Source: a virus
Direction: 5' to 3' (one strand)
IMG/VR virus record: IMGVR_UViG_3300045988_172855
DNA: 64,000 nt
Shown: positions 14,086 to 51,700 of the stretch, piece after piece
Layout of the letters: every line of letters begins with the position of its first letter
How positions within the stretch are numbered: position 1 is the stretch's first letter
Position numbers and translations under genes: made by a program
Notes under the pieces: generated by a model
What the model saw: the letters and a program-made list of their open reading frames with translations, nothing else
What the model was told of the DNA's origin: nothing
Databases searched by the model: none

Positions 14086-14100
14086 ATAAATCGAATTTAT

Positions 14101-14120
14101 GGGGAAGAAATTTCTTCCCC
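14101..14120 (-). terminator. intrinsic terminator hairpin after the SSB-candidate gene
   Basis: Perfect palindrome ggggaagaaatttcttcccc lies 10 nt downstream of the stop at 14130 (minus sense), followed by an A/T-rich tract. Confidence 0.5.
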
Positions 14121-14129
14121 ATGATTTTA

Positions 14130-19400: not shown

Positions 19401-19703
19401 GCAGATAACTCTGAAAAAATCTTCAATACTTTTCATACCCTCCTCGTCTCTCAATTTAGAAGTAATTCTTCTAACTGTTCCTATCGAAATACCTTCACAA
19501 CGAGCAAGATCTGTAATTGCAGCTTTTAATTGCATTGTCGTATATGTTCCAAGTGACGTCACTTGCGTTATACCAAATCTTTTTTCCATATACTCTTTAA
19601 CTCGAGGGCGTTGTTGGCCTTCAAAGTCTGTATCAATATCAGGCATCGATCCGAGTTGTCTTATTTCTTGAACTTCTTTTTTAAGACTTTTAATCGTTAT
19701 CAT
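16419..19703 (-). CDS. dnaE: DNA polymerase III alpha (DnaE-type), C-terminal piece: palm/fingers/OB, interrupted by an intein
   Basis: SMPDIDTDF catalytic aspartates, HACG, LKEDILG, YRPGP, (intein), MGKK, AFNFSHAIAYS and a C-terminal OB-like IIGGFVIDI. It begins exactly where ORF 19690-21315 stops matching DnaE. Confidence 0.85.
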   Translation of the reverse strand: MITIKSLKKEVQEIRQLGSMPDIDTDFEGQQRPRVKEYMEKRFGITQVTSLGTYTTMQLKAAITDLARCEGISIGTVRRITSKLRDEEGMKSIEDFFRVICSDTELREFVKSHTELINDVMVCLNSPKSASIHACGTVVYPDEKSSAQWVPVRESNGLVVTEWEGAEIEEAGFLKEDILGIAQLDKLADILKLIEKNRGIKLDLYNDVPLDDPIVFEYIEKGYLGDVFHFGAKGLSSYCVQMKPHSLDEMGLCAALYRPGPIENNYHNEYILRKRGESEIEYPIGAEDILRPHLGLLITQEDIMRLCQHLAGFDLETTDSVRKCIWGEELFWTPDGAVKIKNIKPFTSVTTYNEKECCFKWNKVYRRVYKKEKECIKLNMQGDNHFTCTPDHKLLTEVGWLEAKDCVGHYVYKDLSRRFGTLSKSKEELYLMIALLTEGSIGTIGSCNFVNKDESELSEFKRCYKEFVREEPKEYYNQYTGCTSLKIKDSVVTDLGLEFVKSDEKRLPDYIFSLNEECQLFVLGKLIDFDGYVASKKGGLLIGYSSKSKELIDQINILFSCLGVLTTTNSRSFAEYPEKYYDIGISSIEDALKIKAMLEPYSTKIKERFNFKLEDFDLDSYSQYKIPFEIWQPIIKNLIDHSGYNCNELLGKNILNYGINRPFDLTYRRAEKILKRCGRSKYLENILKREFCFLKVESYDRVGKLPVYDFTMTSDRSPYAFVGGILAHNCMGKKITSKLKSFGDKFVKGYVERFGVEEKYAQDLWKQMEEFGKYAFNFSHAIAYSRNGYNCIWLKAHYPIEFWSVTFSHAKIEDYPFYINEIQKLGNITIKSVDINKSDINIVSDVKTSSMYWALNSVKQCGDKAQEFIHNEREKHGEFFSLDEFIDRCVVKGSPVNKSVIENLIYSGAFDKLENITAPHERLRLIESYRENKRVKILEDKDLLTNIIKARKEKNDWWWTLQQKKLSGFASFDYKRLIEEYHSDDAFSDAEYFDVSELKYWDGNDRSKCAIIGGFVIDIIERKSKKGLFATIVLESNYEFINVIVFPDLFAEYADFLRESKNNLLLVDGYIQFDKWRQEYVLQTNLNTSFTVLS
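17517..18734 (-). mobile_element. intein with LAGLIDADG homing endonuclease inside dnaE
   Basis: aa 324-729 of the ORF. Block A CIWGEELF, block B CTPDH, LAGLIDADG motifs LMIALLTEGSIG and LFVLGKLIDFDGYV, and terminal GILAHN followed by +1 Cys. Exteins rejoin as DSVRK|CMGKK, matching the conserved DnaE RRAMGKK. Boundary codons were checked on the DNA. Confidence 0.85.
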
Positions 19704-29112: not shown

Positions 29113-30795
29113 CTATACTAAATTTATCTCAACTTTTACTTCTTTTTCGTCTTCACGCAAACTATTGATACAAATAAATGAGGACATGCAAATATCGTCG
29201 TGTCCCGAACCAGCTTCCAATTTGCCGTTATCGCTTTTAAAAGTAATGGATGAAAATTCTCCGAACATCACATTAACTGCGTCTCTCGTCTCACCAACTG
29301 CATAAGGACATTTTAATTGTCCTCTCTCAAACATTGCAGAAAGACTTGGTAAACCTGTATAAAGATCCTTCTTATTTCCTTCTGTTGTAGTAAAAGGCTC
29401 TATATTTTTCAATCCTCTTTCTTTAGCTAAACCTGAAAGTATGGACTGAAAACCATTCGATTCACACACTATCTTATTCGGTCTAAATAAACGATCTAGT
29501 TGAACAATTTTATCTACTTGTTCATTGTGAGACATACCTCTTTGTCTATAATAATAAAGTAGATAATAATTCTTCATCGAATCAATACCCCAAATTGTAT
29601 AAACCGTATAGTCTGCGCCAATATTACCTGAAACAGCAAAATCGACTCCTATATGCACACGAGTTAATTTGATGGGGAAATCATCAATTGATGTTGCAAA
29701 TCGAATTTGCTCCATTCCTATCGTAGATCTCATAAGATACTCGTAAGGGAATATCGTTGACGAATCGCTAATAGGAACTACAAGATATTCTCGATTAAAT
29801 ACAATTGTCCCCAACTCTTCTTTCTTTTGAAGAATTTGATCAAAAGTATATCTATCAGGAGCAAGTGGACGACCGTCAGGAAAAATTACAGGATATTCAA
29901 AACAATAAAATCGCTTATCAGTTTTCAATACCTGATATAATTCATTGGGCGAAGAAGAATAAGGAGTTCCACATACAAGAAAATAACCGTAAGGTTCTAC
30001 GATAGGTTCTATAGTACCTTTGATTAATTCTTTGATCTTCTCTCTCTGTTCGTCTGAATATAACGAAGATTCATCAGGCATATCGTCACATACACAGGCT
30101 CCAACATGAAGACCGCGAATAAAACCATCTTTACCTCGAACGTGAAGTATTGAACCTGTTTCTGTCGTGATTCCTGTTTCACCGATACTTGCCTTACCAT
30201 TTGGATTAAGTTTTTCTTTTATAAGATCATTTGTCTCAATCTCTTCTCTTACTTTAGCAATCTGCACTTTCGCTAGAGTCATTGTAGATGTGATATAACA
30301 AGTCTCTTTTCGATTTTGATTATCAATTGTATTAGGTATCCATAAAGTCGGTCTACAATAACTCCATAATCTCCATAATACAAATGCGTAAGAGAAGGTA
30401 TAACTCTTACCTGAACCTCGACCACAAAGATAACAACTCCACGGAAACAACTGAATTAAATTCCCCCACTCAATATTTCTCCATCCCATTCTAAAACTAG
30501 GAAGCATAGAGACAATGAAATAATTAAGCGATTGAATTTTTAATGTCGTGTCCATAGAGGCCTTAACATTCTCTATATAATCAAGACTTTCAGAATCAAG
30601 TGTTCGTCCAAGATAAAGAGCTCTTTCAGATTGACAAAGCATCTCTTGTAACATTCGATCAACATCATTAGAATATCCTTCTAATAATTGATTTAAAGCT
30701 CTACCAGGTAGATCTTCAATTATTTTGTCGACAATATCACATAAATATCCAACTTGATTAGCTGATAATAAATCCTTTCCATCAAGTGACGTCAT
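29113..30795 (-). CDS. terL: terminase large subunit
   Basis: ATPase Walker A CGRGSGKSY, Walker B ACVCDDMPDE, and an RNase-H-like nuclease half with IGVDFAVS and SGHDDICMS. 560 aa. Confidence 0.75.
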   Translation of the reverse strand: MTSLDGKDLLSANQVGYLCDIVDKIIEDLPGRALNQLLEGYSNDVDRMLQEMLCQSERALYLGRTLDSESLDYIENVKASMDTTLKIQSLNYFIVSMLPSFRMGWRNIEWGNLIQLFPWSCYLCGRGSGKSYTFSYAFVLWRLWSYCRPTLWIPNTIDNQNRKETCYITSTMTLAKVQIAKVREEIETNDLIKEKLNPNGKASIGETGITTETGSILHVRGKDGFIRGLHVGACVCDDMPDESSLYSDEQREKIKELIKGTIEPIVEPYGYFLVCGTPYSSSPNELYQVLKTDKRFYCFEYPVIFPDGRPLAPDRYTFDQILQKKEELGTIVFNREYLVVPISDSSTIFPYEYLMRSTIGMEQIRFATSIDDFPIKLTRVHIGVDFAVSGNIGADYTVYTIWGIDSMKNYYLLYYYRQRGMSHNEQVDKIVQLDRLFRPNKIVCESNGFQSILSGLAKERGLKNIEPFTTTEGNKKDLYTGLPSLSAMFERGQLKCPYAVGETRDAVNVMFGEFSSITFKSDNGKLEAGSGHDDICMSSFICINSLREDEKEVKVEINLV

Positions 30796-31442
30796 TGCAA
30801 TTCAAATGTATTTCTAAAACGTATTTTCTTCTTATTCGACAATTGTGTCTGACCTTCTCCTCTCAATTTCTTTATATAAGAAATTAAAAGCAAAGCATTG
30901 GCTTTTGTATCTGTCAAAGCTCTATGTGCATCTACAAGATCTATCCCTGCTAATTGACAACATGTACTAAGTTTATAATCCATTTGTTCTAAAGCAGATA
31001 AATGAGCCCACGATAAAGTATCGATCCAATATTTGACATAATTATCAATATTATCTCCCATATCTTCAAAAAAGTTTCTTAAAAAAGGAATATCAAACGA
31101 TATATTGTGTCCTCCCATACTACACATTTGTCGAGGATTTTTGTATTTTTTAAATATGGCACAAACTTCTTTGTAAATTATTTTAAGTTCAACACCATTA
31201 TTTTGTCTCACTTCCTTTTTAATCCCATGTACTTCTTCTGCTTCCTTTGTGTAAATTAATTCTTCTTTATACTCATCTTTAAAAATGAAAGATTTTTCTT
31301 CAATAATTGAAAGATTTTCACAATCAATTACGACTAAAGCTAATTCAACTGCAGCTATATCGTAATATGCTCTTTGTTTACTATTAGGTAAACCTCCTGT
31401 TTCAAAATCAAACATTATAATATACTTAGCAGATGTTTTCAT
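30792..31442 (-). CDS. DnaQ/epsilon-like DEDDh 3'-5' exonuclease
   Basis: ExoI MFDFETGG, ExoII GHNISFDIPFL, ExoIII HRALTDT. Confidence 0.75.
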   Translation of the reverse strand: MKTSAKYIIMFDFETGGLPNSKQRAYYDIAAVELALVVIDCENLSIIEEKSFIFKDEYKEELIYTKEAEEVHGIKKEVRQNNGVELKIIYKEVCAIFKKYKNPRQMCSMGGHNISFDIPFLRNFFEDMGDNIDNYVKYWIDTLSWAHLSALEQMDYKLSTCCQLAGIDLVDAHRALTDTKANALLLISYIKKLRGEGQTQLSNKKKIRFRNTFELQ

Positions 31443-32175
31443 TTATTTCTTGTTTTAAAAATTCAACTAATTCTTCGATATTATCAGATACACTATTCGA
31501 TTTCTCAAGATTGTCTTTTGCCCATAGAGGCTGTAAGTTTCTGTAATTGAAACAGATACGTTGGTTTTCCTCTTTTGTCAAATCGAAATAAGAACACGGA
31601 ATGATATGATCAATCTGCCACTTTCCTTCACCTTTTCCTAAATTATCCCACGTCATTCCAGGTTCAAATTGCATCTCGAGATGAGCTTTCAGCTCATCGA
31701 TCGAGCAACCGAGAAGATTGAGAGTGTGATCTGATTTCTGATTGTTTTTAAGTGCTGTCAGAAGTCTACCTCTTAAATTAGAACTAATTTTATAATTTAT
31801 ATCACTAATTCTCTTTTCCTTGTAATATAAAGACGATTTCCCTAAAAGATTTCGTCTTTTTCTAGACTTTTCGTTAGACTTCTTTCCTTTTTCAGATCGT
31901 CTATACTCATCATTTATTTTTCTATAAACAACCTTACCTTTTTCAGAAGTTCGCCATCGTTTATTCCTCTCTCTTCTCAACAACCTTCCTCTTTCGGAAC
32001 TAACATAATTCTTTTTACAATTTTTACATTGACAATCATAACCATCTGAACAACGTTTGTTCATATAAAAATGATCAAGTGACAATTTACATTTACAAAC
32101 TGAACAAACCTTTAATCCCGTCTCACAATCAAATTTCATCTTTATAAACCTGATTATTTTCGTTCGCAAGTACAT
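31426..32175 (-). CDS. free-standing HNH homing endonuclease
   Basis: N-terminal Cys-rich region and basic repeats. C-terminal WQIDHIIPC...NYRNLQPLWAKDN is an HNH motif. It is a paralogue of 63665-64000. An alternative ATG lies at 32139. Confidence 0.75.
   Translation of the reverse strand: MYLRTKIIRFIKMKFDCETGLKVCSVCKCKLSLDHFYMNKRCSDGYDCQCKNCKKNYVSSERGRLLRRERNKRWRTSEKGKVVYRKINDEYRRSEKGKKSNEKSRKRRNLLGKSSLYYKEKRISDINYKISSNLRGRLLTALKNNQKSDHTLNLLGCSIDELKAHLEMQFEPGMTWDNLGKGEGKWQIDHIIPCSYFDLTKEENQRICFNYRNLQPLWAKDNLEKSNSVSDNIEELVEFLKQEINENIC
31641..31755 (-). repeat. 115-bp exact repeat shared by the two HNH genes (copy 1)
   Basis: aattatcccacgtcattccaggttc...gattgtttttaagtgc is identical to 63886-64000. 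The identity is cut by the window end. Flanks are related but diverged. Confidence 0.9.
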
Positions 32176-32378: not shown

Positions 32379-32774
32379 TCAATTTCTAGCTATTAATAAT
32401 CTTTCAAAATCAACATCTCTTTGTTCTTCGTCTTCGTAAATGATATACAAATTTTTAATAGGATTATCTTTAAACGAAGCTGTTTCATCTTCTAATTTAT
32501 TGATAATTATAACAGGCTCTCCCTTTTTATTATACTCTTTCGATTGAGATATAATAAAACCTTTCAATAAACTAAAATCGTTACCAAAGACAAAATTACG
32601 CTTTTTTATATTACCAGCAAAATTTATCCAATTATCAGCTTCCTCATAAAGTTTCATTTCATTTTCCTTATCAGGAAGTGTTTCGTAATTTTGCAATCTT
32701 GCTGCAAATCTCTTTAAACCTGCACTTTCAAATACTTTGATGCATAGATCAATTATCTTTCTATCTTGATTCAT
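32379..32774 (-). CDS. hypothetical protein
   Basis: ORF with an ATG start. Confidence 0.5.
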   Translation of the reverse strand: MNQDRKIIDLCIKVFESAGLKRFAARLQNYETLPDKENEMKLYEEADNWINFAGNIKKRNFVFGNDFSLLKGFIISQSKEYNKKGEPVIIINKLEDETASFKDNPIKNLYIIYEDEEQRDVDFERLLIARN

Positions 32775-33195
32775 CTCGTTCTTTTTCTAAAAGTTTAAAA
32801 ATCAATTCTTCAGGAATTTGCTTTATAAGTTTCGATCTATCACCAAAATCATAAATATAGTGACAATTTTGACAAGCCAAAACAATATTTTCAGAATCAC
32901 ATCTTAATGTAGGATGTGCTCCTCTTGAAAGAATGTGACTAAAAAATATAGGTTTGGGATTATTTCCCAATCTTTTACCACAATGAAAACAAATATGTTT
33001 TCTAGTTCTCCATATTTCATCGAAAACCACTTGAAGTTCGTTATTTTCTTTTTCAAGAGTATTCTTATTCAAAGAACTTTTCTTTCTATCGTCATCGCAT
33101 TTTTTACAAAGCCATTTATTCCTGTTAAAAATCTTGTGTTCTGTTTTACAACAAACACACGGTCTCACTTCTTCTTTAATTCGCTTTATATACAT
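32761..33195 (-). CDS. zinc-finger HNH-like (NinG-like) protein
   Basis: CVCC...CKKC, CFHCG, then SHILSRGAHP...ENIVLACQNCH (H-N-H arrangement). Confidence 0.45.
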   Translation of the reverse strand: MYIKRIKEEVRPCVCCKTEHKIFNRNKWLCKKCDDDRKKSSLNKNTLEKENNELQVVFDEIWRTRKHICFHCGKRLGNNPKPIFFSHILSRGAHPTLRCDSENIVLACQNCHYIYDFGDRSKLIKQIPEELIFKLLEKERDESR

Positions 33196-33434
33196 TAAAA
33201 ATTTTGATATAATTCAAGATTATTGAAAACATAACACTCTTTATCTCTTATTTGCGGATACATGTAGGATGGGATTTCTGCTATTTTACGGGCATTTCCC
33301 CAATATGATATCTGGTCTTTTACATCAAATAGAAGTTGCGGAGTATCATAAAACAGGTTCAGTTCCCCTTCCTTTTTAACATCTTCATCCCATTTACCTT
33401 CGTCACGGGCGATATATAATTTAAAATTGTTCAT
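33195..33434 (-). CDS. hypothetical protein
   Basis: ORF with an ATG start, preceded by AAGGAGTG. First gene of the higher-GC island. Confidence 0.5.
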   Translation of the reverse strand: MNNFKLYIARDEGKWDEDVKKEGELNLFYDTPQLLFDVKDQISYWGNARKIAEIPSYMYPQIRDKECYVFNNLELYQNF

Positions 33435-33443
33435 AATGATTAT

Positions 33444-33731
33444 TCACTCCTTTAATCTTTTAATTAGTGCATCAGCGCAATTAACCGCATATTTAGCGAG
33501 TGCATCAGAATTACCCCCACAGTCATCTGCTATAACAGCCTTAATAATATCTTTCGCTAATTCGTACCTACGTTGTTCCCAGTCAATAGTTTCACTAAAG
33601 AAATCAAGTTCGCATTCTCTGTAAACCATGTTATCACATACATATAAATAATTATTGTTATGTTGAGAGTTGATGTTTAATTGGGGAGTTACATCTACCA
33701 AAACTCCTGTTGATTTTATTCTTGCTTTCAT
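33444..33731 (-). CDS. hypothetical protein
   Basis: ORF with an ATG start. Shares an MKARIK start and an 18-nt identity with the next small ORF. Confidence 0.5.
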   Translation of the reverse strand: MKARIKSTGVLVDVTPQLNINSQHNNNYLYVCDNMVYRECELDFFSETIDWEQRRYELAKDIIKAVIADDCGGNSDALAKYAVNCADALIKRLKE

Positions 33732-33734
33732 CGT

Positions 33735-33905
33735 TTAATCATTTATTTTAACATAACGCTTAGTAATAGTACCGAATGAATGATACCGATGCCAAACTAT
33801 ATTTCCACGCTGAATTTCAGTAAGCCAATCACAAGCTTTAAAAACTTGTCCTACATTGTATAGGAATGGTCTTTTTTGAATTTTTCTTTTTATTCTTGCT
33901 TTCAT
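33735..33905 (-). CDS. small hypothetical protein (56 aa, not in the ORF track)
   Basis: Hand translation MKARIKRKIQKRPFLYNVGQVFKACDWLTEIQRGNIVWHRYHSFGTITKRYVKIND. The ATG overlaps the upstream TAA (TAATG) and is preceded by AGGAGG. Confidence 0.4.
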   Translation of the reverse strand: MKARIKRKIQKRPFLYNVGQVFKACDWLTEIQRGNIVWHRYHSFGTITKRYVKIND

Positions 33906-34357
33906 TATTCCTCCTTTGTTTTAAAATGTTCAATCAGTTCGTCTACGGTAGCCTTGTGAATGGTATCCGTATTAACATCAATATCACTGTAGACCCAATA
34001 GGTAGAGAACTTGGTTTTAGGACACAGAATCCACTTATCCCCATCCGTAAACCATTGGTACTTGTCTGTATCATCCCTTAATGCAGCGATAGCCAGGAAT
34101 AGTTCTTCATTCGTTCCGCAATCAATACGTCCTTTCTTAGTGACAGTATCTACATTATATATCACTCCATATAAATTACCATAAGACGTTATAATAGCTT
34201 TCCCTTCTTCGATACTTTTATGACTTCCCTTTCCGTCATAATTATGTTCATCTAATGTTGTATTACCAAAATTAAGTATGTTATACCCCAATTCTTCCAG
34301 TCCTATCCGAAGTTCCTGTGTGTTTTTGCGTATAAAGCACGGTGTTGTAAATCCCAT
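33905..34357 (-). CDS. hypothetical protein
   Basis: ORF with an ATG start. AGGAGG at 34365-34370 (complement) lies 7 nt upstream. Confidence 0.55.
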   Translation of the reverse strand: MGFTTPCFIRKNTQELRIGLEELGYNILNFGNTTLDEHNYDGKGSHKSIEEGKAIITSYGNLYGVIYNVDTVTKKGRIDCGTNEELFLAIAALRDDTDKYQWFTDGDKWILCPKTKFSTYWVYSDIDVNTDTIHKATVDELIEHFKTKEE

Positions 34358-34359
34358 AA

Positions 34360-34650
34360 TTATTCCTCCTTAATTATTCGCTCATTTATAATAAACTCTC
34401 CATGAATATCAATGGGAAGCATATTGGAAACACTCGCATGATAAGTCTTACCGTCCATTGCCTTACATAGTGGATGTATTTCTTTAGGCATAGGGGCAGG
34501 ACATTTTTTACAATGTCTTATCATTTCAAAATGTCTGTTTTCCTTATTGCCACAACATTCACAATGAATTGGATAGTAAAAATAAGTACGTTCCAACTGG
34601 GTTTCTTTTCCACATATTTCGCATCTGCCCCATTCTATTGAATTACACAT
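34360..34650 (-). CDS. Cys-rich zinc-binding small protein
   Basis: CEICGKE...CECCG...HCKKC. AGGAGG at 34659-34664 (complement) lies 8 nt upstream. Confidence 0.55.
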   Translation of the reverse strand: MCNSIEWGRCEICGKETQLERTYFYYPIHCECCGNKENRHFEMIRHCKKCPAPMPKEIHPLCKAMDGKTYHASVSNMLPIDIHGEFIINERIIKEE

Positions 34651-34653
34651 AAT

Positions 34654-34854
34654 TTATTCCTCCTTTTCTGTTTTAATATCTGTTACTTTACCACGATTGA
34701 CAAAGCACTGGTCCATGTTTGGGTTTTCATAAGCTATATCGCAAATGATTTCTGAACTATCATCACACTCATTTTGTAATGAGCACTCATCACATATTCC
34801 AACGCACAATTCATGCAACACCCCGTCTATTATTATTCCGTTCTTTATTTCCAT
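34654..34854 (-). CDS. Cys-rich small protein
   Basis: ATG at 34852-34854 (the track start 34866 is TTG), 2 nt after the upstream TGA. Multiple Cys residues (CVGICDECSLQNEC). Confidence 0.45.
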   Translation of the reverse strand: MEIKNGIIIDGVLHELCVGICDECSLQNECDDSSEIICDIAYENPNMDQCFVNRGKVTDIKTEKEE

Positions 34855-34856
34855 AA

Positions 34857-35117
34857 TCAAATACAATTTCTCATATATGTTTTCCTATCAATCATACCGT
34901 TTTCTGATTCTTCTACCAAGCCAAAGAATGTATTAGCATAACAAACATGCTTGTCTATCATTATACATATTCCATCAGACGGATAATATTCACATGAAAC
35001 ATTATCATCCCAATCTATATGTTTTTGTGCTTCTTTGGATATATCATCACAAGCAATCATATACTCTATGTATTTATTAGATGCTTTTCTTATTTTATCA
35101 AATATATTTCCTTTCAT
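34857..35117 (-). CDS. hypothetical protein
   Basis: ORF with an ATG start. Confidence 0.5.
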   Translation of the reverse strand: MKGNIFDKIRKASNKYIEYMIACDDISKEAQKHIDWDDNVSCEYYPSDGICIMIDKHVCYANTFFGLVEESENGMIDRKTYMRNCI

Positions 35118-35127
35118 GGCTTTTCAA

Positions 35128-35382
35128 TTACTCAATATATAAAACAGTCCCTCTATGTATCATATCTTCCAATTCTCTTTCCGAAAACTCATCGAATGTA
35201 TGTTTATCCATAGTGCAAAAATGATACCTTACAAGATGCTTTTCATAATTGATGTTTTTATGATAATCAATCATTACATCACTTATAACCGCCTCAACAA
35301 TCTTACCGTTTACAACAAAAGAAAAACGTGTTCCGACATCATAACACACCTTCTTAAACAAAAGAACTTTACTTTCATTCAT
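35128..35382 (-). CDS. hypothetical protein
   Basis: ATG at 35380-35382 (the track start is TTG). AAGGAGA at 35389-35395 (complement). Confidence 0.5.
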   Translation of the reverse strand: MNESKVLLFKKVCYDVGTRFSFVVNGKIVEAVISDVMIDYHKNINYEKHLVRYHFCTMDKHTFDEFSERELEDMIHRGTVLYIE

Positions 35383-35384
35383 TT

Positions 35385-36233
35385 TCAATCTCCTTTCCCA
35401 TAAACATTTACAAACTCGCTGACATCCATATAGTCTATACCGAAATTCTCGGCTGTTTTCTTGTCACTGTCCGAAAACTGCCCTTCAAGACCGCTTGCAT
35501 CACCAATCATTAGACAATCTTCTACCTCCAAACTGCAATCTTTCCATGTCTTGTAATTATCAAAAAGTTCTTCAAGCATTCCGGTATTCGGCTTTCTCAT
35601 AGGGTTGCTTCTGTCATTGCTTCCGCAATACTTAAAACGCGTATCAATGTTGCAATAATCCATTATACTGTAATTCACATACTCACATTTTACATAAATG
35701 AATGATTCCGGAAACAGACCCTTTTCTATCCCTCCCTGGTTTGTCACGATAAAAATTACTTTAGGATTCAGATTCTTTATTGCATCTAGGACGTCAAACT
35801 TAAACTTCATGTCCCATATACCATTTGGAAACGTCTCACCGCTTGCAGTTTCTATTAACGTCCCGTCCATATCACAAAACAAAACTTTATACTTTTTCAT
35901 TTTTCTATGTGTTTTACTGTTCTTATTCCTTTTTCTGCGTTTCGCAATCTGCTTTCTGACACACCTATCGTCCTTGATACGGCATTTCGTTTTAGGTGAA
36001 TCAAATGAAATCATATCAAAACCTTCAACAACAGGCTTATTGTAATATAGAATAGACGTTTCTTCATTATCAATCTTATCCTTATCCGTTACTATAACAG
36101 CATCACAATCACTGTTTCTAGCTTCCTCAACAGAATCATAACGTTCAAGGGAATATCCTGTTTCCAGATTTTCAAATAGAAGGTATTCGGATGAATTTAT
36201 CATTGAACCTACAACAGCAATCTTCTTAGTCAT
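35385..36233 (-). CDS. PNKP-type DNA 3'-phosphatase (HAD-IIIA) with an N-terminal domain of unknown function
   Basis: LFCDMDGTLIETASGETFP (DxDGT), IFIVTNQGGIEKG, RKPNTGM and MIGDASG follow the HAD-IIIA polynucleotide 3'-phosphatase motif order. A basic linker separates a ~115-aa N-terminal domain. Confidence 0.6.
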   Translation of the reverse strand: MTKKIAVVGSMINSSEYLLFENLETGYSLERYDSVEEARNSDCDAVIVTDKDKIDNEETSILYYNKPVVEGFDMISFDSPKTKCRIKDDRCVRKQIAKRRKRNKNSKTHRKMKKYKVLFCDMDGTLIETASGETFPNGIWDMKFKFDVLDAIKNLNPKVIFIVTNQGGIEKGLFPESFIYVKCEYVNYSIMDYCNIDTRFKYCGSNDRSNPMRKPNTGMLEELFDNYKTWKDCSLEVEDCLMIGDASGLEGQFSDSDKKTAENFGIDYMDVSEFVNVYGKGD

Positions 36234-36382
36234 ATTTTATTATTTTTATAATGATTACAATACTTAGGAGTTTTCCTAGCCGTTATTCTCTTCTGTAAAG
36301 CCATGCAATACATAAACGGACGAATACCTTGATAGTGTATGCACTCACTACAATGCACTCCTAAATTCATTACCTTTGCCAT
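36230..36382 (-). CDS. small Cys-rich hypothetical protein (50 aa, not in the ORF track)
   Basis: Hand translation MAKVMNLGVHCSECIHYQGIRPFMYCMALQKRITARKTPKYCNHYKNNKI. Preceded by AAGGAGT. Its stop overlaps the next ATG (ATGA). Confidence 0.4.
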   Translation of the reverse strand: MAKVMNLGVHCSECIHYQGIRPFMYCMALQKRITARKTPKYCNHYKNNKI

Positions 36383-36387
36383 AACAA

Positions 36388-36738
36388 TTACTCCTTTACT
36401 AGTTCTATCTTAGTGTTCATAAGACAAACATACAAGTTCACCTCCGACATGGTTCCATCTTTCTTCACCTTGCTAAACAATGGCTCAACGTTATCAAGAA
36501 AATCAATTTTATAATCCCTGACATAGGCGTATTGTTTTCTTTCGGGGACAGTAACACTTTCTAAGCTATCTAATTTTGTATATGTAGATGCAGGAGTGGT
36601 AATACACACCTTGCTTCCGATAGGATACTTCACATTGGATTCAATGTACTCTTTTTCTAATTTTATCATTTCGTTCTTCAATTCATTCATCTTTGAATTG
36701 ATAATTTCTCTCTTTGCTTTAAATTCTTCTTTATTCAT
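36388..36738 (-). CDS. hypothetical protein
   Basis: ORF with an ATG start and a coiled-coil N-terminus. Confidence 0.5.
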   Translation of the reverse strand: MNKEEFKAKREIINSKMNELKNEMIKLEKEYIESNVKYPIGSKVCITTPASTYTKLDSLESVTVPERKQYAYVRDYKIDFLDNVEPLFSKVKKDGTMSEVNLYVCLMNTKIELVKE

Positions 36739-37219
36739 ATCTACATGCTTTATTGTATTTACATTCTTTACATTTAATTTCGTTATAAAGAGCTCCTTCG
36801 TATTCGTCGTTACATAAAATGTATCCTCTAGGAGTATTCCAAAATTTATGTCTCAGAAAATCTAAGTATTCTTCTGAAAATCTACTTTGACTTTCTAACG
36901 GATTTCGAAGACCTCTTTGTCTAAGAATTCGAGAAACCATAAACATCTTCTCTGACGTTCTCTCGTTCCATTGTTTTATCGAGTTTAAACACAAACATTT
37001 TGCTAAAGTGATATAGAATATTCCCGAATTCTTTCTATCAGATAAAACAATCTGAAACGACAGATATTTCCATATCTCATCAGTTGTATTGATCTTAGAA
37101 TTTATCATAAACTTATTTATTAAATTTATATTTCTCTGAGATCGTTTCAATTCGTAACCTGGACTATTATTCAGTCTAGCTATCAAATATTCGTATATAT
37201 CACAAAACTCATCTATCAT
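36731..37219 (-). CDS. hypothetical protein
   Basis: ORF with an ATG start and a C-terminal CKECKYNKAC. Confidence 0.5.
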   Translation of the reverse strand: MIDEFCDIYEYLIARLNNSPGYELKRSQRNINLINKFMINSKINTTDEIWKYLSFQIVLSDRKNSGIFYITLAKCLCLNSIKQWNERTSEKMFMVSRILRQRGLRNPLESQSRFSEEYLDFLRHKFWNTPRGYILCNDEYEGALYNEIKCKECKYNKACRYE

Positions 37220-37246
37220 AACAAAATAGTATCTCTTACTCTTAAA

Positions 37247-37275
37247 GAAAAGGACGTTTTGAATTCGTCCTTTTC
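37247..37275 (-). terminator. intrinsic terminator hairpin
   Basis: 10-bp stem gaaaaggacg/cgtccttttc with a 9-nt loop, followed on the minus strand by TTTAAG. It lies downstream of the tail-module gene ending at 37306. Confidence 0.55.
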
Positions 37276-44220: not shown

Positions 44221-45696
44221 TTGCTTATTAATTCACAATCAATCACGCTCTATGCCCTCTACATAAGCTCATCAGGGTGGTTTGCTCCTGTGACGAGTAA
44301 GTCGATAGATGTAGAAAATATAAATAATTATTATACAGGTTTACAAGGTAAAGATAAATTAAAAGAAGGTACTTCTTCGTTTGGATATTATTTTGATAAT
44401 CATATCGATTATCGAGGTAATAGTCAACCCATGTTTAGTGTTGCAGATTTTGGTAGAAGTGGTATATCAATTAATTTGGGTTTTTATTATATTAATGAGT
44501 ATAATGAAATTATTTCAGATAGAAGTGAGCAATTTCATGCCAATTCTAACAAAGTTATTTTAAGAGGAAAATTATTGGTAGCTTCCAATCAAATTAACAG
44601 TATGGTTGCTGCTATAGGTTGTGTTTCGAGCTCTGATAATCAATTTTCAAGATCTATTTGGATGGTTTATAAGGGAACGGGTTATAAAGTACGGAGAACT
44701 ACGAACTTTTCCAGTTCTACTAATTTATTAAAAGCGTACAGTAGTTACACTTTACAAAATGCGATATATTGGGGACAATGGAAAGGTAGTGATAATTATA
44801 TAGGAAGTTATTCAGCTAATCCCTTAGGACATTCACTAACAGTTGGGTACATATTATCAGATCCCAATTATGGTACTAGCGGAGAAGTTGATATATCGTT
44901 AGGTGGTATAGTTGTAAATTTTCTCAAGGCGATATTAATAGAAACTGAAACAGTAACGAGTGGAACTGTAGGAATATATGCTAAAATCGTTCTTTTAGGC
45001 ATCCATGATGATCGTAGTAAAACATTGTATTACGTGAAAATACGGTGTTATAATTCAGGTAGTGTATCGTACATTCAAAAAGTAGGTGATATAGTTTCTT
45101 ATAAATCAGTCAACCGTCCAATGGGAGCTAATTTATGGTTTACGACTGATAGAAAATGGATGTTTTTTCCACCTTCAGGTGATAGTTTTTATCCTAAAGG
45201 AATAAACTCATATTATGCTAATGGTCAACAATTGATAGTAGATGGTTCAACTTCTATGCCTGATGATGTTAGTTATCTGAATTCATCTCACACATCTGCA
45301 ATGAGATCTGCTTTGCAAAATGTATACGTATTAGAGATTTTGTTTAACAAGACTCAAACTAAAATGATTGTATTAACAAATACAACTGGAGCTGCATTTG
45401 AAATTGGAGATTTTGAAGGTAATTACAATCCTGATGCTATGTATTGTTTTCAATTGGTAAATAATTCTTGGGTACAAATTTCAACTCAAGCTATAGATAG
45501 ACAAAATGTTTTAGCTTCGTATAATTCAACTGGAAATCAAGGTATCAAGTATAAATCAAGTCTTTCTCTTTGTGATAAATCAAATGATCTCGGTTCATTA
45601 GCTATGTTTGGTAGTCAATATAGTTTTAACTGGGCATTTCCTGCAAATAGCAAACCGACTGTATTTTATACATCAAAAATAACGTGGGGTGAATGA
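44221..45696 (+). CDS. silent alternative C-terminal cassette of the giant tail fibre (no ATG start; paralogue of the region encoded by 45715-47097)
   Basis: The only long plus-strand ORF not nested in a minus-strand gene. The frame opens after TAA at 44179-44181 with no ATG before IR-L (the track start is TTG). The C-terminal ~190 aa align with the giant fibre tail (YPKGINSYY, SYLNSSHTSAMRSALQNVYV.EI.FNKT..KMIVLTN). Confidence 0.7.
   Translation: MLINSQSITLYALYISSSGWFAPVTSKSIDVENINNYYTGLQGKDKLKEGTSSFGYYFDNHIDYRGNSQPMFSVADFGRSGISINLGFYYINEYNEIISDRSEQFHANSNKVILRGKLLVASNQINSMVAAIGCVSSSDNQFSRSIWMVYKGTGYKVRRTTNFSSSTNLLKAYSSYTLQNAIYWGQWKGSDNYIGSYSANPLGHSLTVGYILSDPNYGTSGEVDISLGGIVVNFLKAILIETETVTSGTVGIYAKIVLLGIHDDRSKTLYYVKIRCYNSGSVSYIQKVGDIVSYKSVNRPMGANLWFTTDRKWMFFPPSGDSFYPKGINSYYANGQQLIVDGSTSMPDDVSYLNSSHTSAMRSALQNVYVLEILFNKTQTKMIVLTNTTGAAFEIGDFEGNYNPDAMYCFQLVNNSWVQISTQAIDRQNVLASYNSTGNQGIKYKSSLSLCDKSNDLGSLAMFGSQYSFNWAFPANSKPTVFYTSKITWGE
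44236..44301. repeat. 66-bp perfect inverted repeat, left arm (IR-L)
   Basis: caatcaatcacgctctatgccctctacataagctcatcagggtggtttgctcctgtgacgagtaag is the exact reverse complement of 47032-47097. It encodes QSITLYALYISSSGWFAPVTSK in frame in both ORFs. Confidence 0.95.
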
Positions 45697-45711: not shown

Positions 45712-48700
45712 TTACCATATTGTATTTGTATAAGATATATAATAATCCACATTATAAGCAGGTTTACCCCAAGAAAGAGTCCAATTACCGTCATTATCCT
45801 GTAATAATAACGAAGGTCTTTTTAAAGAGTCGCTTTCGTTATAAGAATTCCACAAATTAACTCTATCGACAATAGAAGAAACGTTTATCCATGATGCCGT
45901 ATTTGCTTGATAAACAAATGCAAACATTCTATCAGGATTATGAGAATCTCCGTCGAATGTAAAACTATTTGTAACAGCAAATGAACCTGAAACACTATTC
46001 GTCAATACGATCATTTTATCAGACGTCTTATTGAAGATAATTTCCTGTACATAAACATTTGATAATGCACTTCTAATTGCAGATGTATGAGATGTATTGA
46101 GGTAAGAAGCGTTATTTTCAATGTAATTTGTAACATTGCTTGTTATAAATTCTTTGTTACCATAATAGGAATTTAATCCTTTTGGATAAGCAATAGATGT
46201 ATTTTGAGATTTAGGAACAAAAAATATCCATTTTGTATCAAAACTAACCCAAATATTGGGTCCGAGATTTTGATTAAAAACATGATTTGAAGGAGTTTCG
46301 TAAAATGAAGATAAAGAACCTAAATGTCCACTACTATTGACATTGAAATTACCCGTAACAATTTCAAAAATATAAGAATCATTGCCTCTTAATATCAAAA
46401 GTGCTTTTTTATCAGCGAATCCTATCAATTTTATACCATAATAATCACTTGAAATATTGTCAGGAAGTACGTGAGCATTTGTAGAACATGATCCTGATAG
46501 CAATGCTACAGTATTTTCCCTTATTGCTCTTGATTCAAATGCTTTAGAGAGAACTAAACAATAGTCTGAATGATAAATATGACAAAATGCATGAGTACTT
46601 GTGTAAGTATTAAATACTCTTTTTATTGATCTTATACTTGTATCTCCGAATGATCTTGCTGATCGACCTTCGTTTACTCCTCTATATGTAATCGTATTCA
46701 CATAATAAACACTGTTTGCATGCCATGTAAAATGTTTAAATATATTCACACTATAACCATCAGATCCCTTTGAACTATAAATGCATCTTGTTTTAGAAAC
46801 CTGTGATGTTGTAAATTGCGAATAATTCCTAGTATTGCCGCCATCGGACGGATAAAAATATGTATCTATTGAAGAACTTGCATTTGAAACACTAGCTAAA
46901 AATAAACTAGAATTAACGCCAGGTGTATATGGGAAAAAGGCACAACAACTACTAGTATTTGCATTTTCCCTGCTATATCGATTATTATCTGATATACCGG
47001 TATATACTGTTCTAATAGCCCTAGCTACTTTCTTACTCGTCACAGGAGCAAACCACCCTGATGAGCTTATGTAGAGGGCATAGAGCGTGATTGATTGATC
47101 AGAGATGAAAGAAACTGCCGACCCGCTTCGATTAGGAACGGGGAAATTATTTGTTCCAGTTCCTCCCCAAGCAGTCGATCCCCCTGCTTCAGTCCAGTAA
47201 TTACCCGGTCTGATTTTTAAAACCAATTGACCACTTGCGTTAGTTGTTCCACTATAATTTACTGCACTATTATTATTTGACAGTTTTACGATACAACTTG
47301 CAGCAACCAATGATGTATTATCACTTCTCTTTACATTGATAGTTAAATTCATTTCAGAAGGTACTAATTTCAATGTAAAATTAGTTGTGTTCGCGTTAGT
47401 TGTGTTCAGTATATCGTATCTTGATGCACTAATGATATATCTATTAGTTAATCCTGAAACATATACAGTCGTTTGTCCATTTGAATTTGTAGTTAAATTC
47501 TGTGCTGATGCTGACGTAGCGTTACTACCATCTATACCATATACAGTAACAGTTGCTCCGCTAACATTTGCATTTGTCAAACTATTCTGAACCGTTAATG
47601 TTAAAGCCTTAATAGCTGTAAAATATTTTATTCCCGTTACATTGCTAAAATTATATGTAGGAGTGACATTATACATCGTATGAGTTGTCGTTGTACCTGT
47701 TACGAAATAAGCATTTGAAGCTCCCATTGTCGTATTCAAACCAGCTATAAACGTATAATTTGCAATAACATAATTTGAATTATGATCAATTCCTAATGTT
47801 ACAGTGGTAGCTACACCTGCAGTTGTATAAACCGGTTTAAATAAATTTACACCACCTGCTTTTAAATAAAAATCTCTTGATCCTTGAGTAGGTACTCTGA
47901 AATACCATATCAAAATAACATTCTTAGTCAATCGAACAGCACTTTTTTGAATAGAAGCTGTTGGCATTGTAATATCTACAGACTGCGCTCCCCAATAAGA
48001 AGTTCCTCCACCCCAACTCAAAGTATAAGTTCCTTGAATCATCGGACCAAACGAAACTTGACCGGAAGAGTTGGTGTTGCCACTAAATGTAATTGACGTC
48101 TTGTTTTTATTAGTGAGTTTTACAGGACAACCATTTGCATTTCCTTTATCTGCACCTTGATAATTATCTTTAATTGTTATTGTAATCGAAGAAGAAGTTT
48201 CACTTAAAGTTACATTCCAAGGAGAGGCTTGAGTAGCTGGAATCGATCCTGATGCTGTGTTATACAAACTCTTAGAAAAGCTGTAACTATAATTAGGAGT
48301 TCGTCCTCCTCTATAAACCGTAGCGTTACCACTACCATCTGTAGTTACAGTTTGTCCAAATAATGTTGCACTTACGCCACTTATATTCCATCCATAATTA
48401 GAACTCTTCACATTTGCAACGAATTGCGTTTTAGACGTCATTGTCATTGTCCACGATTCACCTTCTCTTGTCCAAACGTGAGTTTGCGTTCCGTTACTAT
48501 AATATCCGGCGTTAGCTTTTGGAGTGTAAGAGTACGTCAATCCTGCATAAACTGTATTTGATTTTCTACCACTTCCATCTAATGTTAACTCAGTTACAGC
48601 TCCTAATACAGTTCTATTTACAATTGAATTTAAAAATGCCCCTGTATAAGTTCCTAACTTTTCCATTACAGTTAGTGTTACTGTAACAGTTGTTCTCGTA

Positions 48701-51700
48701 AATGTTATATTATAAGGAGTAGATTGTCCGTGAGTTACAGTTCCGATGTAAGCATTAAAATAAGTTGCACTACCATTAATAGGTTTGTCTAAACCACTTC
48801 GATAAAATACTGCATTACCACTTCCATCTGTAGTCTTCGTCTGATTAAAATATGTCAATGAAGCTCCGCTAATATTTGTATTAGCAGGTACATTGCTCTT
48901 AACATTTACAGTTATTTGAGCAGAACATGCCAAAGACATATTAAACGTTTGATTAGCTGATGTATAAGTATAACTTTGACTAGGATTACTATAATAATTT
49001 GAATGATCAACTACCGCAAAAGTTGTTGGAATACCAAGATATGTTGTTACTGTAGTTGCACCATTTATATCCAATGTAATTTTAGAAGAACTTCCATTCT
49101 TCGTCATTGTTAATGATTTAGATGCATAAACGTTTGTTCCAGCTATATTCGGAATAGTTTCTACGACCTTTATTGATACAGTCGCTTGATTTCGACTCAT
49201 TACAATATTAAAAGGAGAAGTATTCGAAGGAGTAATTGTTCCACTATAATTTGCATGATATGTAACTGTCGAAGTTATCGATTTATCCAAACCACTTCGA
49301 TAAAATACTACGTTCCCATCCGCACCTGTCGTTTTCGTCTGATTAAAATATGTAACAGATGCGTTAGATAGATTAGCTGAAGGAGCATTACTCTTAACAT
49401 TTACAGTTATTTGAGCAGAACATGTAAGTGTCATATTCCAATTCTCATTGACTGTATTAAACGTATGTACTTGAGTTGAATTATTATAAAAATTAGCATT
49501 ATCTACAACAGTAAATGTCATTTCTGTCCCCAAATAACCGTTGAAAGTTGCGTTTCCTGAAGAGTCAAGAGTTAAAGTTCCCTTTGCACTGCCTGCAGAC
49601 CAATTTATTTTTTTAGAAGCGTAATTCCAGGTTCCTGTTACTCCTGGAATAGATTCTACAACATGAATTTTTACCGGATTGGCTGCACGAGTCAAAATTA
49701 CCTTTATAGGAGAGACCTGATCACTTGTAATTAAACCTGAATAAGATTCTAGAAAATCTGCTGATACAGATATATTCCGATTCAATCCACTTCGATAAAA
49801 TGTCGCATTTCCATCTGTATTCGTCGTCTTAGTTTGATTGAAGTATGTAACAGATGCGTTAGGTAAAGGTTCTCCAGCTGGAACATTAGCTTCTACATGA
49901 ACAACTAAAGTTGTAGAACACGTTAAGATCATTGTCCACGATTCACCTATTGTAGCAAACGTGTGACTTTGACTAGAATTACTGTAATAATTAGGATGGT
50001 CGATTACTGCAAAAGTTGTCGGAATCCCTAAATAACATTTAAATGATATTGCACCATCATCATTTAATGTCAACGTTCCGTTCCCGGCTGCATTCGTATA
50101 CGTGATCTGCTTGTTTGCATAATTTAAATTACCTTCAATGTTAGGAATCGCTTCTTTAACATTAATCGTTACTGACTGCAACTCTCTAAACAATTTGATT
50201 GCTATAGGAGATGAGTTTGTTGCTTCGATATTTCCGGTAGTTGTTCTATAATCATCTTTTGTTACAGAATAATCTTTTGTTAAAGCTGATCGATAAAATA
50301 CTGCATTACCACTACTATCTGTGGTTTTTGTTTGTAAATTATATTGTATATTTGCACCAGAGATATTAACGTTTGAATAAGTATCTTTAACGTTTAATGT
50401 AATCTGTGCAGTTACATTCAAATTCATATTCCATACAAAACCATCTTCTGTCCACGTATACGACTGCGTAGGATTGGAATAAAAATTCGCATAATCATCG
50501 ACTGTAAATGTATATTCTAATCCTTTGATCAATGTCATAACTGCAGTACCATTTTCGTCAAGGCTTATGGTAATTTCACCTGCCTTTGAATTCATCGTCA
50601 AAGTTTTATTTGACAATGCAGCAAATACTGAACTTGATCCGTATAGCTCTCGAACCTCAATCTGAGCATTAATTAACTCATATTGAACCTCTACTTCGAG
50701 TTCTGTTCCTGCTTCTGTTTGCGGATGATCAAAAACTCCTGTCGTAACTTCACCAGCTAATACAGAATATTGATATGTACCCGTCAAAACATTCGGAATA
50801 TTAGCTACACCATCGATATCTGTCGTTCCTTCGTAAACTAAAGATTCGTCTTTAGTATTCGTGATTCGCACTATTATATTTTCAGGAGGCAAAATTCCAC
50901 CAGTAGAAACTGTAAATTTTACCGGATAGCTTTTTGCTTCTAAAGTAAATTCTAATTTCGTTTCTTGTCCTGTTGGCGTTAGCGATCCTGTAAGATCGTT
51001 GTAATATTGTTTTCGGATTGTATAATTCATTGACACAGGAGACAAATAAATATAAGCAATACCTGCATTATTCGTCTCTTGTATTTGATCAACTGACATT
51101 CCTGTAAACGTAACTTGCGCTCTTTCTAAATCTCCATATAAATCACTTGAAACGTGAACAGGAATTCGTTTAGAACATGTATAAGTTAGAGTTATGTTTT
51201 GAGTTGCTCCATTAGAATAATCTAAAGTAAACGGATCTCCTTCTCCTTCGTAAAAACCAACCGGTTGAATCGCAAATCGCTCAGGTAATCCAGCGTAAAC
51301 CGTTTTTGTTACCTGTCCATTTGCATTTGTAGTTAGATTGCTTCCTGAAGAAGTATTTTTTTCAACATAAAACGGTGACAAAACCAATCCCGCTTTTACA
51401 GGATTAGCTGTCGAAGAAATTAACGGAAGAATTTCTTTAATGGTTGCAGTTACAGAAATCGTTCTTCTTACTGCAACCATTTCAACAGGATTATCTAAAG
51501 GAAGATAAATATCTTTAGTTGCAATATCGTAATTATTATTTGCACTACCAATTGTAATTCTATATTCTCCTGGCGGGATATTGAATTGTCCGTTTCCTGA
51601 CGAATTAAAATCTCCATTATCGTCTGTTGTACCTGTAAAAGTGTATTGTTGAGAAGTTGTTCCTCCCCACAAACTAGTTACACTTACAGAACAGTTGTTT

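Follow-up and report, generated by a model that had tools for sequence, protein, structure and literature searches.

The window analysed here is a stretch of 64,000 nt from the virus record IMGVR_UViG_3300045988_172855 of IMG/VR. Between positions 33195 and 36738 it holds an array of small genes on the minus strand, packed head to tail between two conserved genes; we refer to the array as the island and to its genes as cassettes. Most genes of the window have A-rich leaders without a Shine-Dalgarno (SD) sequence, and the subject of this analysis is a set of six strong SDs in the island, each written into the last codons of the gene ahead. The island and its flanking genes are listed below in the direction of transcription, with coordinates of the window.

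33195..36738, minus strand: the whole accessory cassette array, with 11 open reading frames (ORFs), or 12 genes if the fused 282-aa ORF is split.
36731..37219, minus strand: upstream flanking gene in the sense of transcription, 162 aa; in nearly all relatives at 28-99% amino acid identity, with no match in Pfam or PHROGs.
36388..36738, minus strand: cassette 1, 116 aa; ends GTA AAG GAG TAA, which is the SD of the next gene; common to the relatives L003, L004 and L034.
36390..36396, minus strand: SD AAGGAGT, at the 3' end of cassette 1; the ATG at 36382 follows after 7 nt.
36230..36382, minus strand: cassette 2, 50 aa, Cys-rich; its homolog in contig L244, from a metagenome-assembled genome (MAG) of Odoribacter, has the same SD joint.
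35385..36233, minus strand: fused ORF of 282 aa; N-terminal 111 aa (35901-36233) and C-terminal phosphatase (35385-35900).
35389..35395, minus strand: SD AAGGAGA, written into the GKGD-stop end of the phosphatase gene; the ATG at 35382 follows after 6 nt.
35128..35388, minus strand: cassette of 84 aa (ATG at 35382) or 86 aa (TTG at 35388).
34857..35117, minus strand: cassette of 86 aa without an SD; 95-98% nucleotide identity with unrelated contigs.
34654..34866, minus strand: cassette of 66-70 aa, Cys-rich; ends GAA AAG GAG GAA TAA (EKEE-stop).
34653..34665, minus strand: joint copy AAGGAGGAATAAA, with K-E-E codons, stop and the SD that precedes the 96-aa gene; repeat family D1.
34360..34650, minus strand: cassette of 96 aa with 10 Cys; ends ATT AAG GAG GAA TAA; 82% amino acid identity to a gene of phage C3_41T2LP.
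34359..34371, minus strand: joint copy AAGGAGGAATAAT; repeat family D1.
33905..34357, minus strand: cassette of 150 aa; ends AAA ACA AAG GAG GAA TAA (KTKEE-stop).
33904..33916, minus strand: joint copy AAGGAGGAATAAT, the stop overlapping the next start (TAATG); repeat family D1.
33735..33905, minus strand: chimeric ORF of 56 aa, a 174-nt unit whose first six codons duplicate those of the next gene (both MKARIK).
33714-33731 and 33888-33905: exact 18-nt direct repeat ATGAAAGCAAGAATAAAA (coding strand) flanking the 56-aa ORF; repeat family D4.
33444..33731, minus strand: cassette of 95 aa, phrog_28300; ends AAG GAG TGA (LKE-stop); 56% amino acid identity to a C3_41T2LP gene.
33445..33452, minus strand: SD AAGGAGTG, 10-12 nt before the ATG at 33434.
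33195..33434, minus strand: last cassette, 79 aa, its stop overlapping the start of the NinG-like gene (TAATG); present in L003, L004 and L034.
32761..33195, minus strand: downstream flanking gene, a NinG/HNH-type nuclease of 144 aa (phrog_5034 NinG/Rap, 1e-7, and HNH families); in nearly all relatives.

This gene list agrees with the earlier note on this DNA, which had counted about 12 short ORFs, several of them Cys-rich and one a PNKP-type phosphatase; four of the proteins without a name are Cys-rich.

The six AAGGAG motifs of the island start at 36396, 35395, 34665, 34371, 33916 and 33452 on the minus strand, each 3-12 nt 5' of a start codon, and all six motifs quoted in the earlier note were found where it had placed them. 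Gene starts were scored by the energy of the duplex with the anti-SD sequence, and a start was counted as SD-led at -8 kcal/mol or lower. According to the literature the anti-SD is kept in the 16S rRNA of Bacteroidetes (PMC3155529, PMC7797042), and it is presumed for the host. The island SDs, AAGGAGG or AAGGAG, gave energies of -8.2 to -12.1 kcal/mol. Six of the 11-12 starts in the island were SD-led, as against 2-3 of 51 elsewhere in the window (Fisher test, p ~4e-4, range 3-5e-4), so that the island is indeed unlike the rest of the window in this respect. The starts outside it are 58084, 27593, which is weak, and 14133, a doubtful GTG start (ORF 13453-14133). On the coding strand of the window AAGGAG occurs 38 times. 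All six island copies lie at gene junctions, and nearly all of the other 32 fall within genes. SD-like hexamers are not avoided there, which fits a host where internal SDs would cost nothing.

All six SDs are encoded by the last codons of the preceding ORF. They are spelled AAG GAG GAA TAA (KEE-stop) three times, AAG GAG TAA or AAG GAG TGA (KE-stop) twice and AAA GGA GAT TGA once, and after the SD-bearing stop the next ATG follows within 2-9 nt or overlaps it. The 13-nt form of this joint (AAGGAGGAATAAT/A) is present in three exact or near-exact copies within 760 nt (repeat family D1). At its remaining junctions the genes of the array overlap (ATGA or TAATG) or are separated by short gaps rich in A, and its intergenic gaps range from -10 to +10 nt.

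The spelling of the joint was compared with the spelling of the same dipeptide inside genes. In the window, Lys-Glu is written AAG-GAG at 10 of 178 internal sites versus all five C-terminal sites of the island (p=6e-7). In 160 cassette-bearing loci, with identical junctions counted once, it is so written at 69 of 87 tight junctions versus 121 of 985 internal sites (p=2e-40). There were seeming exceptions, in which an SD had no gene close behind it, and every one has an ATG 2-7 nt past the stop that the gene caller had overlooked. The spacing between SD core and ATG has a sharp maximum at 7-8 nt (346 distinct junctions). Upstream of the 96-aa cassette AAGGAGG is constant while the flanking codons vary among contigs; in L147 and L159 the SD before this cassette is intergenic and not coding, yet it is kept. 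Junction variants that have only an AGGAG or GGAGG core, with other flanks, are also at the right spacing. The SD-led share is 37-41% at gaps of -1 to +10 nt versus 10-17% at longer gaps. These comparisons show that the SD sequence is under selection at the nucleotide level. Two other functions of the motif were considered and rejected. A frameshift-stimulating SD of the prfB type does not fit, as the SD abuts the stop, a slippery codon is absent and the next ORF has its own ATG; nor does a promoter of a phage RNA polymerase, as the conserved part is only the 7-nt SD core at a fixed distance from the ATG.

Our preferred reading, to which we assign a probability of roughly 60%, is that the island is a promoterless cassette chain in which the SD would be a functional ribosome-binding signal, probably acting via translational coupling. 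The joint, AAG GAG GAA TAA followed by 2-9 nt and an ATG, chains about half of the cassettes head to tail. Because of this layout, a canonical AAGGAGG lies in the last codons of one gene and 5-9 nt before the start of the next. In one long polycistronic mRNA the SD would keep each downstream cassette translated, whatever neighbour recombination places ahead of it. The likely mode would be translational coupling or re-initiation at the stop/start junction, and the shared 12-15-nt joint may also act as microhomology for cassette exchange. The reading of the SD by host ribosomes, the coupling and the part played by the joint in recombination are inferred. Coupling or re-initiation would be the simplest mode because the SDs are enriched at tight junctions and the array has no detectable transcription signals. 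In detail, no minus-strand terminators were found inside the array, terminator hits being at chance level. Promoter-like hits in the array were about two standard deviations above the shuffled mean, for a sigma-70 consensus that does not cover Bacteroides-type promoters, and TAnnTTTG, the -7 motif of Bacteroides, was matched no more often than expected by chance.

Every protein encoded between 27.7 and 44.2 kb was compared by tblastn with 80 related loci. Genes on both sides of the island are conserved across the phage family, and all ORFs from 33195-33434 to 36388-36738 were found in the four closest relatives only and are missing from ~75 relatives that keep both flanks. In ~55 of these 75 the flanking genes lie 21-160 nt apart. 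Inserts in the window's own clade measure 2.3-3.8 kb and differ in content. About 17 relatives from two other clades carry an insert of 1259 nt or 1364-1377 nt at the same site; in the three loci examined, this 1.26-1.38-kb insert was a TnpB-type gene (OrfB_IS605 and Cas12f1-like TNB) of 392 or 404 aa, as in L014:7092-8270 and L019:6338-7552. With TnpB in some clades and cassettes in others, the site takes two quite different kinds of insert. The island is a horizontally exchanged accessory insertion at a hotspot. The earlier note had suggested a comparison with related phages to see whether the block is an indel: it is an insertion, and its flanks adjoin in most relatives. The boundaries first drawn at ~33.2 and 36.7 kb match the limits of the insertion, 33195 and 36738. 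The island had also been placed at the junction of tail and replication modules. The tail side holds, with baseplate and tail-fibre-type genes upstream of the island; the downstream side carries nuclease genes, an exonuclease and the large terminase and is not a replication module proper.

The contents of the site are exchanged between genomes. L003, L004 and L034 have flanks of 95-100% nucleotide identity to those of the window and differ in their cassette sets: several cassettes of the window are absent from L004 and L034, which have others instead, and L003 has two extra cassettes at the place of a 252-nt replacement in the window. Homology among near-identical genomes breaks at 36375, 36230, 35126, 34654, 34357 and 33435, all of them gene boundaries, and the first of these, the break with L004, falls just past the SD joint 36390..36396. 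Island segments of 200-600 nt are 95-99% identical to otherwise unrelated contigs of 40-140 kb, and many start or end at joints. The 96-aa cassette has copies of 100% amino acid identity in dozens of otherwise unrelated IMG/VR contigs of 35-95 kb; 52 of 59 contigs have ATT AAG GAG GAA TAA at its end, and the gene that comes next is one of at least seven different ones. The family of the 150-aa cassette has more than 582 relatives in IMG/VR and forms 4682 clusters at 90% identity in the protein collection, with no Pfam family. These comparisons establish a mosaic exchange of cassettes between genomes, and the original description of a recently acquired, hypervariable accessory block was borne out by contents that vary among near-identical relatives and by pieces shared at high identity with unrelated contigs.

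Some cassettes carry further traces of change. In the closest relatives the 96-aa cassette is frameshifted into ORFs of 87 and 43 aa (L003:6821-7110 and L034:7144-7433), and the copy in the window is intact; the broken copies indicate that single cassettes probably decay or get replaced. Three tandem paralogs of the 150-aa family lie at L247:562-2194, with a shared N-terminus (TPCFIRKNTPELRKxLEELGY) and C-terminal parts that differ, and the family may combine a constant and a variable module. The 56-aa ORF and the gene that follows it share their first six codons because of the 18-nt direct repeat. In other contigs the 95-aa gene comes straight after the joint, with no 56-aa ORF, and the repeat around this ORF looks like a recombination scar.

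The same data bear on a different explanation, that the joint is above all a linker for recombination at the DNA level, or a neutral hitch-hiker, and resembles an SD without any translational role. Breakpoints between genomes do fall on either side of the 13-nt joint; at 34359..34371, homology with L034 and 17 other contigs stops at 34357-34359, and four contigs begin at 34371. The three joint copies within 760 nt, the succession of at least seven different genes to one cassette across the same joint and the reported SD-blindness of the host ribosomes, taken up below, would also suit such a linker. However, a linker need not keep 7-8 nt to the ATG nor match the anti-SD, the variants with an AGGAG or GGAGG core alone are correctly spaced as well, and 12-15 nt is short for homologous recombination. 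The numbers of distinct downstream partners also fail to single out the joint: joint-bearing families have 11-25 and a similarly sampled joint-less family has 12, a comparison confounded by the way in which the loci were collected. We consider this explanation quite unlikely, and keep to the SD as a ribosome-binding signal.

The composition of the island is less distinct than its SDs. The earlier note had called it a higher-GC island. Total GC of 33230-36650 is 0.343 versus 0.329 for the rest, at the 89th percentile of windows of the same size, and the difference between 60-nt lines is not significant (Mann-Whitney, p=0.15); higher GC peaks exist in the window, for example 0.385 near 61 kb. 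A recount of the five 60-nt lines on which that statement had leaned gave 26, 27, 16, 12 and 11 G+C, in agreement for all but the fourth, which had been given as 13. The contrast had been seen partly because the two flanks are AT-rich. At third codon positions the step is real. The mean GC3 per gene is 0.290 in the island versus 0.234 elsewhere (p=0.0025), and six of the 11 island genes have a GC3 above the highest value of any other gene in the window. The compositional step is present at synonymous sites and is not significant in total GC. In tetranucleotide distance the island ranks 6-7 of 121 windows, which is high and not the highest; the strongest deviation in the window lies at ~46000-49500 (minus strand), inside a gene for a 3196-aa protein, and exceeds that of the island; other parts of this gene carry repeated carboxypeptidase-regulatory-like domains.

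A shift in GC3 and tetranucleotide usage relative to the rest of the genome would be expected if the block had come from phages of an SD-dependent lineage such as the Firmicutes, with the SDs as leftovers that have not decayed. An SD-dependent lineage had been the source proposed for it. The joint AAGGAGGAATAA-N-ATG resembles a typical ribosome-binding site of low-GC Gram-positive bacteria, and among species-representative genomes, in which relatives of the cassettes were found in Bacteroidales and Odoribacter MAGs, two small contigs with distant homologs are in bins labelled Firmicutes (Coprobacillaceae and Bacilli). Neither of these contigs has an SD-led gene (0 of 19 and 0 of 12), and their GC is 28%; for these reasons they do not resemble Firmicutes phage DNA. 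The cultured phages that matched the two cassettes searched as proteins (50,697 phage records) were Bacteroides phages (B. uniformis and B. fragilis) only, together with human faecal phage records; at the nucleotide level the island also matches a phage of B. salyersiae and a crAss-like genome from mouse. Among 158 cassette-carrying loci that were scored, none has more than 55% of its genes SD-led and most have 10-40%, with a baseline of 3% at random positions. The SD spelling is moreover held against codon bias in many diverged copies and contexts, which is not expected of a decaying relic. A donor with SD-dependent translation was not found among these loci, and we regard such an origin as very unlikely.

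In cassette-bearing loci 27-29% of small genes are SD-led versus 8-21% of large genes. The cultured B. uniformis phage C3_41T2LP has a small-gene array by its DNA polymerase in which 9 of 21 genes are SD-led, versus 8 of 68 in its first 50 kb, and several junctions of that array have the same TAAGGAGGAATAAAT-ATG joint. Two other Bacteroides phages gave 3 of 25 (BS162P1) and 0 of 21 (BF503P1, a B. fragilis phage), and the homologs that they carry of these proteins are more distant and have no SDs. In the window's own phage family 10-23% of gene families are SD-led in most prevalence classes, and SD use as a mark of rare, accessory families was rejected on this ground. The SDs are thus a maintained feature of the cassette pool inside SD-poor phages and not a relic of a foreign host, and SD use is, by these scores, a minority feature of these phages that is concentrated in one cassette sub-pool.

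Several points weigh against a functional, coupled SD as we prefer to read it. The ribosomes of Bacteroidia are reported to be SD-blind, and a Prevotella bryantii reporter behaved alike whether an SD was added or removed (PMC3155529). In Flavobacterium johnsoniae bS21, bS18 and bS6 keep the anti-SD out of reach (PMC7797042), and the SD of prfB is poorly used even by elongating ribosomes (PMC10798248). Given this reported blindness, a role in coupling needs an anti-SD that is accessible under some condition. The identity of the host is itself only inferred. The phage is tailed, ~73-78 kb in size and probably a parasite of Bacteroidales, because the nearest cultured terminases (37% amino acid identity) are those of Bacteroides thetaiotaomicron phages; the A-rich leaders without SDs fit such a host. 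Distant homologs of the same protein families have no SDs (in BF503P1 and in Bacteroidales MAGs), so the SD is dispensable for these proteins. In the partner counts, joint-bearing families have no clear excess to support the idea that the joint promotes recombination. Finally, an SD core precedes 13% of genes after long gaps, and the signal is therefore not limited to coupled junctions.

The last point favours another explanation, which we consider possible and clearly less probable than coupling. The SD-led cassettes may form a conditional regulon that is read efficiently only by ribosomes with an exposed anti-SD, so that the SD would time or gate expression. The readers could be 30S subunits without bS18 or bS21, immature subunits, or ribosomes remodelled by infection. 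F. johnsoniae ribosomes without bS21 regain SD use and translate the SD-led rpsU better (PMC9976891, PMC13000453). In the class Bacteroidia a strong SD precedes 1.7% of genes and is frequent on rpsR (66%) and rplI (82%) and often present on rplE and rplF, and Jha et al. suggested that subunits depleted of bS18 read them (PMC7797042). The share of SD-led families in the window's phage family is far over this host baseline. On the other side, no homologs of bS21, bS18 or bS6 were found in the window, with ~10-14 kb of the genome lying outside it, and the sole bS21 match, of 25 bits, sits inside the DnaE gene. The enrichment at tight stop/start junctions is also more simply explained by coupling. 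Reading by ribosomes with an exposed anti-SD nevertheless remains a live alternative to a coupled ribosome-binding signal, and a pure linker or a foreign relic is less likely. A more general idea, which we offer tentatively and think improbable, is that mobile genes of gut Bacteroidales phages depend on true SD/anti-SD pairing, exposed by infection or by ribosomes that are bS18/bS21-deficient or re-initiating. If so, the SD joint would be a private, portable translation channel wherever the cassettes land, and the SD-blindness of Bacteroidia would be conditional, an exception exploited by phages.

The proteins made from the cassettes were searched for known families. The segment 35385-35900 matches PF08645 (1.2e-20; 74.3 bits versus a cut-off of 22; residues 116-272 of the 282-aa ORF) and has the catalytic motif FCDMDGTL, with the DxDGT nucleophile. 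It also matches the NCBIfam HAD-IIIA family TIGR01662 above cut-off, a DNA 3'-phosphatase family, and the PNKP phosphatase domain in the PDB (1e-6). No kinase domain was found, TIGR01663 covering only the phosphatase part with 41.9 bits versus a cut-off of 502.8, and the protein is not a bifunctional Pnkp. By these matches it is predicted to be a PNKP-type HAD-IIIA 3'-phosphatase of the stand-alone type, and it is the sole cassette that can be named. Homologs of the 282-aa ORF (120 among the matches listed) cover the C-terminal part only and are almost all ~170 aa long, and L003 has a separate phosphatase gene of 171 aa (5571-6086). The first 111 aa of the ORF match no family and form a separate gene of 112-113 aa in L156 (2351-2689), L126 and others. 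In the window the two parts are joined in frame at a run of A on the cassette boundary (CATAGAAAAATGAAAAAG). As they are separate genes elsewhere, the fusion reflects either a junction formed recently or an error in the homopolymer. The earlier note had pointed to blocks of this kind as places where anti-defence or host-takeover genes tend to sit; the small proteins had no match in Pfam, PHROGs, NCBIfam, PADLOC (defence systems) or the PDB save for phrog_28300, a family of unknown function. In a PDB sequence search with three small cassettes, the best match (E=0.005) was to a designed repeat protein and is not credible. AlphaFold2, run on the 150-aa cassette with an alignment of 18 sequences, gave an unusable model (mean predicted local distance difference test score, pLDDT, 35), because the homologs are all at least 87% identical and the alignment is too shallow.

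The 64-kb window has a GC of 33.0%, is coding nearly throughout and holds all but two of its ~63 ORFs on the minus strand. The main features outside the island are as follows.

29113-30795: large terminase.
Tail region: a 3196-aa Baseplate_J-containing protein and a 1809-aa protein with carboxypeptidase-regulatory-like repeats.
16419-19703, minus strand: DnaE-type DNA polymerase III alpha subunit, 1094 aa.
44221-45696, plus strand: the sole long plus-strand gene, 491 aa, between two giant tail-region genes; the GC skew changes sign there, and the protein has no Pfam match.
31426-32175, minus strand: free-standing EndoVII/HNH-type nuclease gene, ~1 kb downstream of the island; in some relatives only, at 36-59% identity.
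37220-37260: conserved element AGAGATACnATTTTGTT, immediately 5' of the ATG of the 162-aa flanking gene, also in divergent relatives.

Related contigs in IMG/VR number ~80 and measure 55-108 kb; three are of the same species, with an identical terminase protein. In a megablast of a 24-kb slice (20000-44000) against the 50,697 phage records, the backbone had no match, and the one match obtained, of 91 nt, lies inside the island. Scans for tRNAs and Rfam families gave no matches. In the DnaE-type polymerase, residues 522-579, which lie between its finger and HHH domains, match LAGLIDADG_3; this suggests an intein or an inserted homing endonuclease. In the relatives L043-L081 (10001-12112) the terminase match spans 2112 nt, not 1680 nt, over residues 1-560, which implies that this gene has a putative insertion of ~430 nt, such as an intron, an intein or an endonuclease. 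In L038-L042 only terminase residues 131-560 match in one piece. The EndoVII/HNH-type gene at 31426-32175 resembles that of a mobile homing endonuclease, which could favour the exchange of DNA nearby.

The Bacteroidia are the textbook case of an anti-SD that is kept and unused. The only SD with a shown function there is that of rpsU in Flavobacterium johnsoniae, a similar role having been proposed for few others. Here, canonical and well-spaced SDs are found on phage accessory genes and are held against codon bias in hundreds of contexts, including a cultured B. uniformis phage. We found no report of this pattern in the literature on SD use in Bacteroides or crAss-like phages. The island suggests how promoterless cassettes could stay expressed while they are shuffled between unrelated gut phages. 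It also documents an insertion hotspot, occupied by a cassette array or a TnpB element, in an abundant uncultured gut phage family, and a small-protein family of more than 4600 clusters that supplies candidates for accessory or anti-defence functions.

The hyperplastic regions and morons of phages resemble the island in their small genes without known function, fixed hotspot, variable content, sharing between unrelated phages and breakpoints at gene boundaries. Arbiol et al. in 2010 are said to have described T4-type hyperplastic regions with PeSL promoter-stem-loop cassettes, and lambdoid phages show boundary-sequence mosaicism. In contrast to the hyperplastic regions and morons, neither promoter nor terminator could be detected for individual cassettes here, the genes are separated by hardly any DNA, and the boundary element is a 12-15-nt stop/SD joint in coding sequence rather than the promoter-stem-loop of the T4-type PeSL. 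Integron arrays likewise consist of promoterless, mobile small ORFs in a single orientation. No integrase was seen next to the array, among the nucleases, exonuclease and terminase that are its neighbours, and gaps of -10 to +10 nt leave no room for attC sites; cassette exchange appears to proceed by general recombination. The phosphatase shares PF08645 and DxDGT with the phosphatase domains of mammalian PNKP and T4 Pnkp and differs from them by the absent kinase domain and by its ~170-aa stand-alone homologs.

The rare SD-led genes of Bacteroidota (rpsU in Flavobacteriia; rpsR, rplI, rplE and rplF in Bacteroidia) likewise have strong canonical SDs in an otherwise SD-free setting. The last four are internal operon genes. 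The island differs from them in that its genes are phage accessory genes, have no autoregulatory logic and are known here from sequence alone. Classical translational coupling in SD-using bacteria and phages has an identical layout, with the SD in the last 2-3 codons, a stop that lies 2-9 nt from the ATG or overlaps it (TAATG) and a spacing of 5-9 nt; here, however, the probable Bacteroidales hosts are reported not to use SDs, and the pattern covers a minority of the genome's genes. Accessory hotspots and translational coupling are both known kinds, and the island is a variant of both; what is unusual about it is that a stop/SD joint is portable and under selection in phages whose hosts are supposed to be SD-blind.

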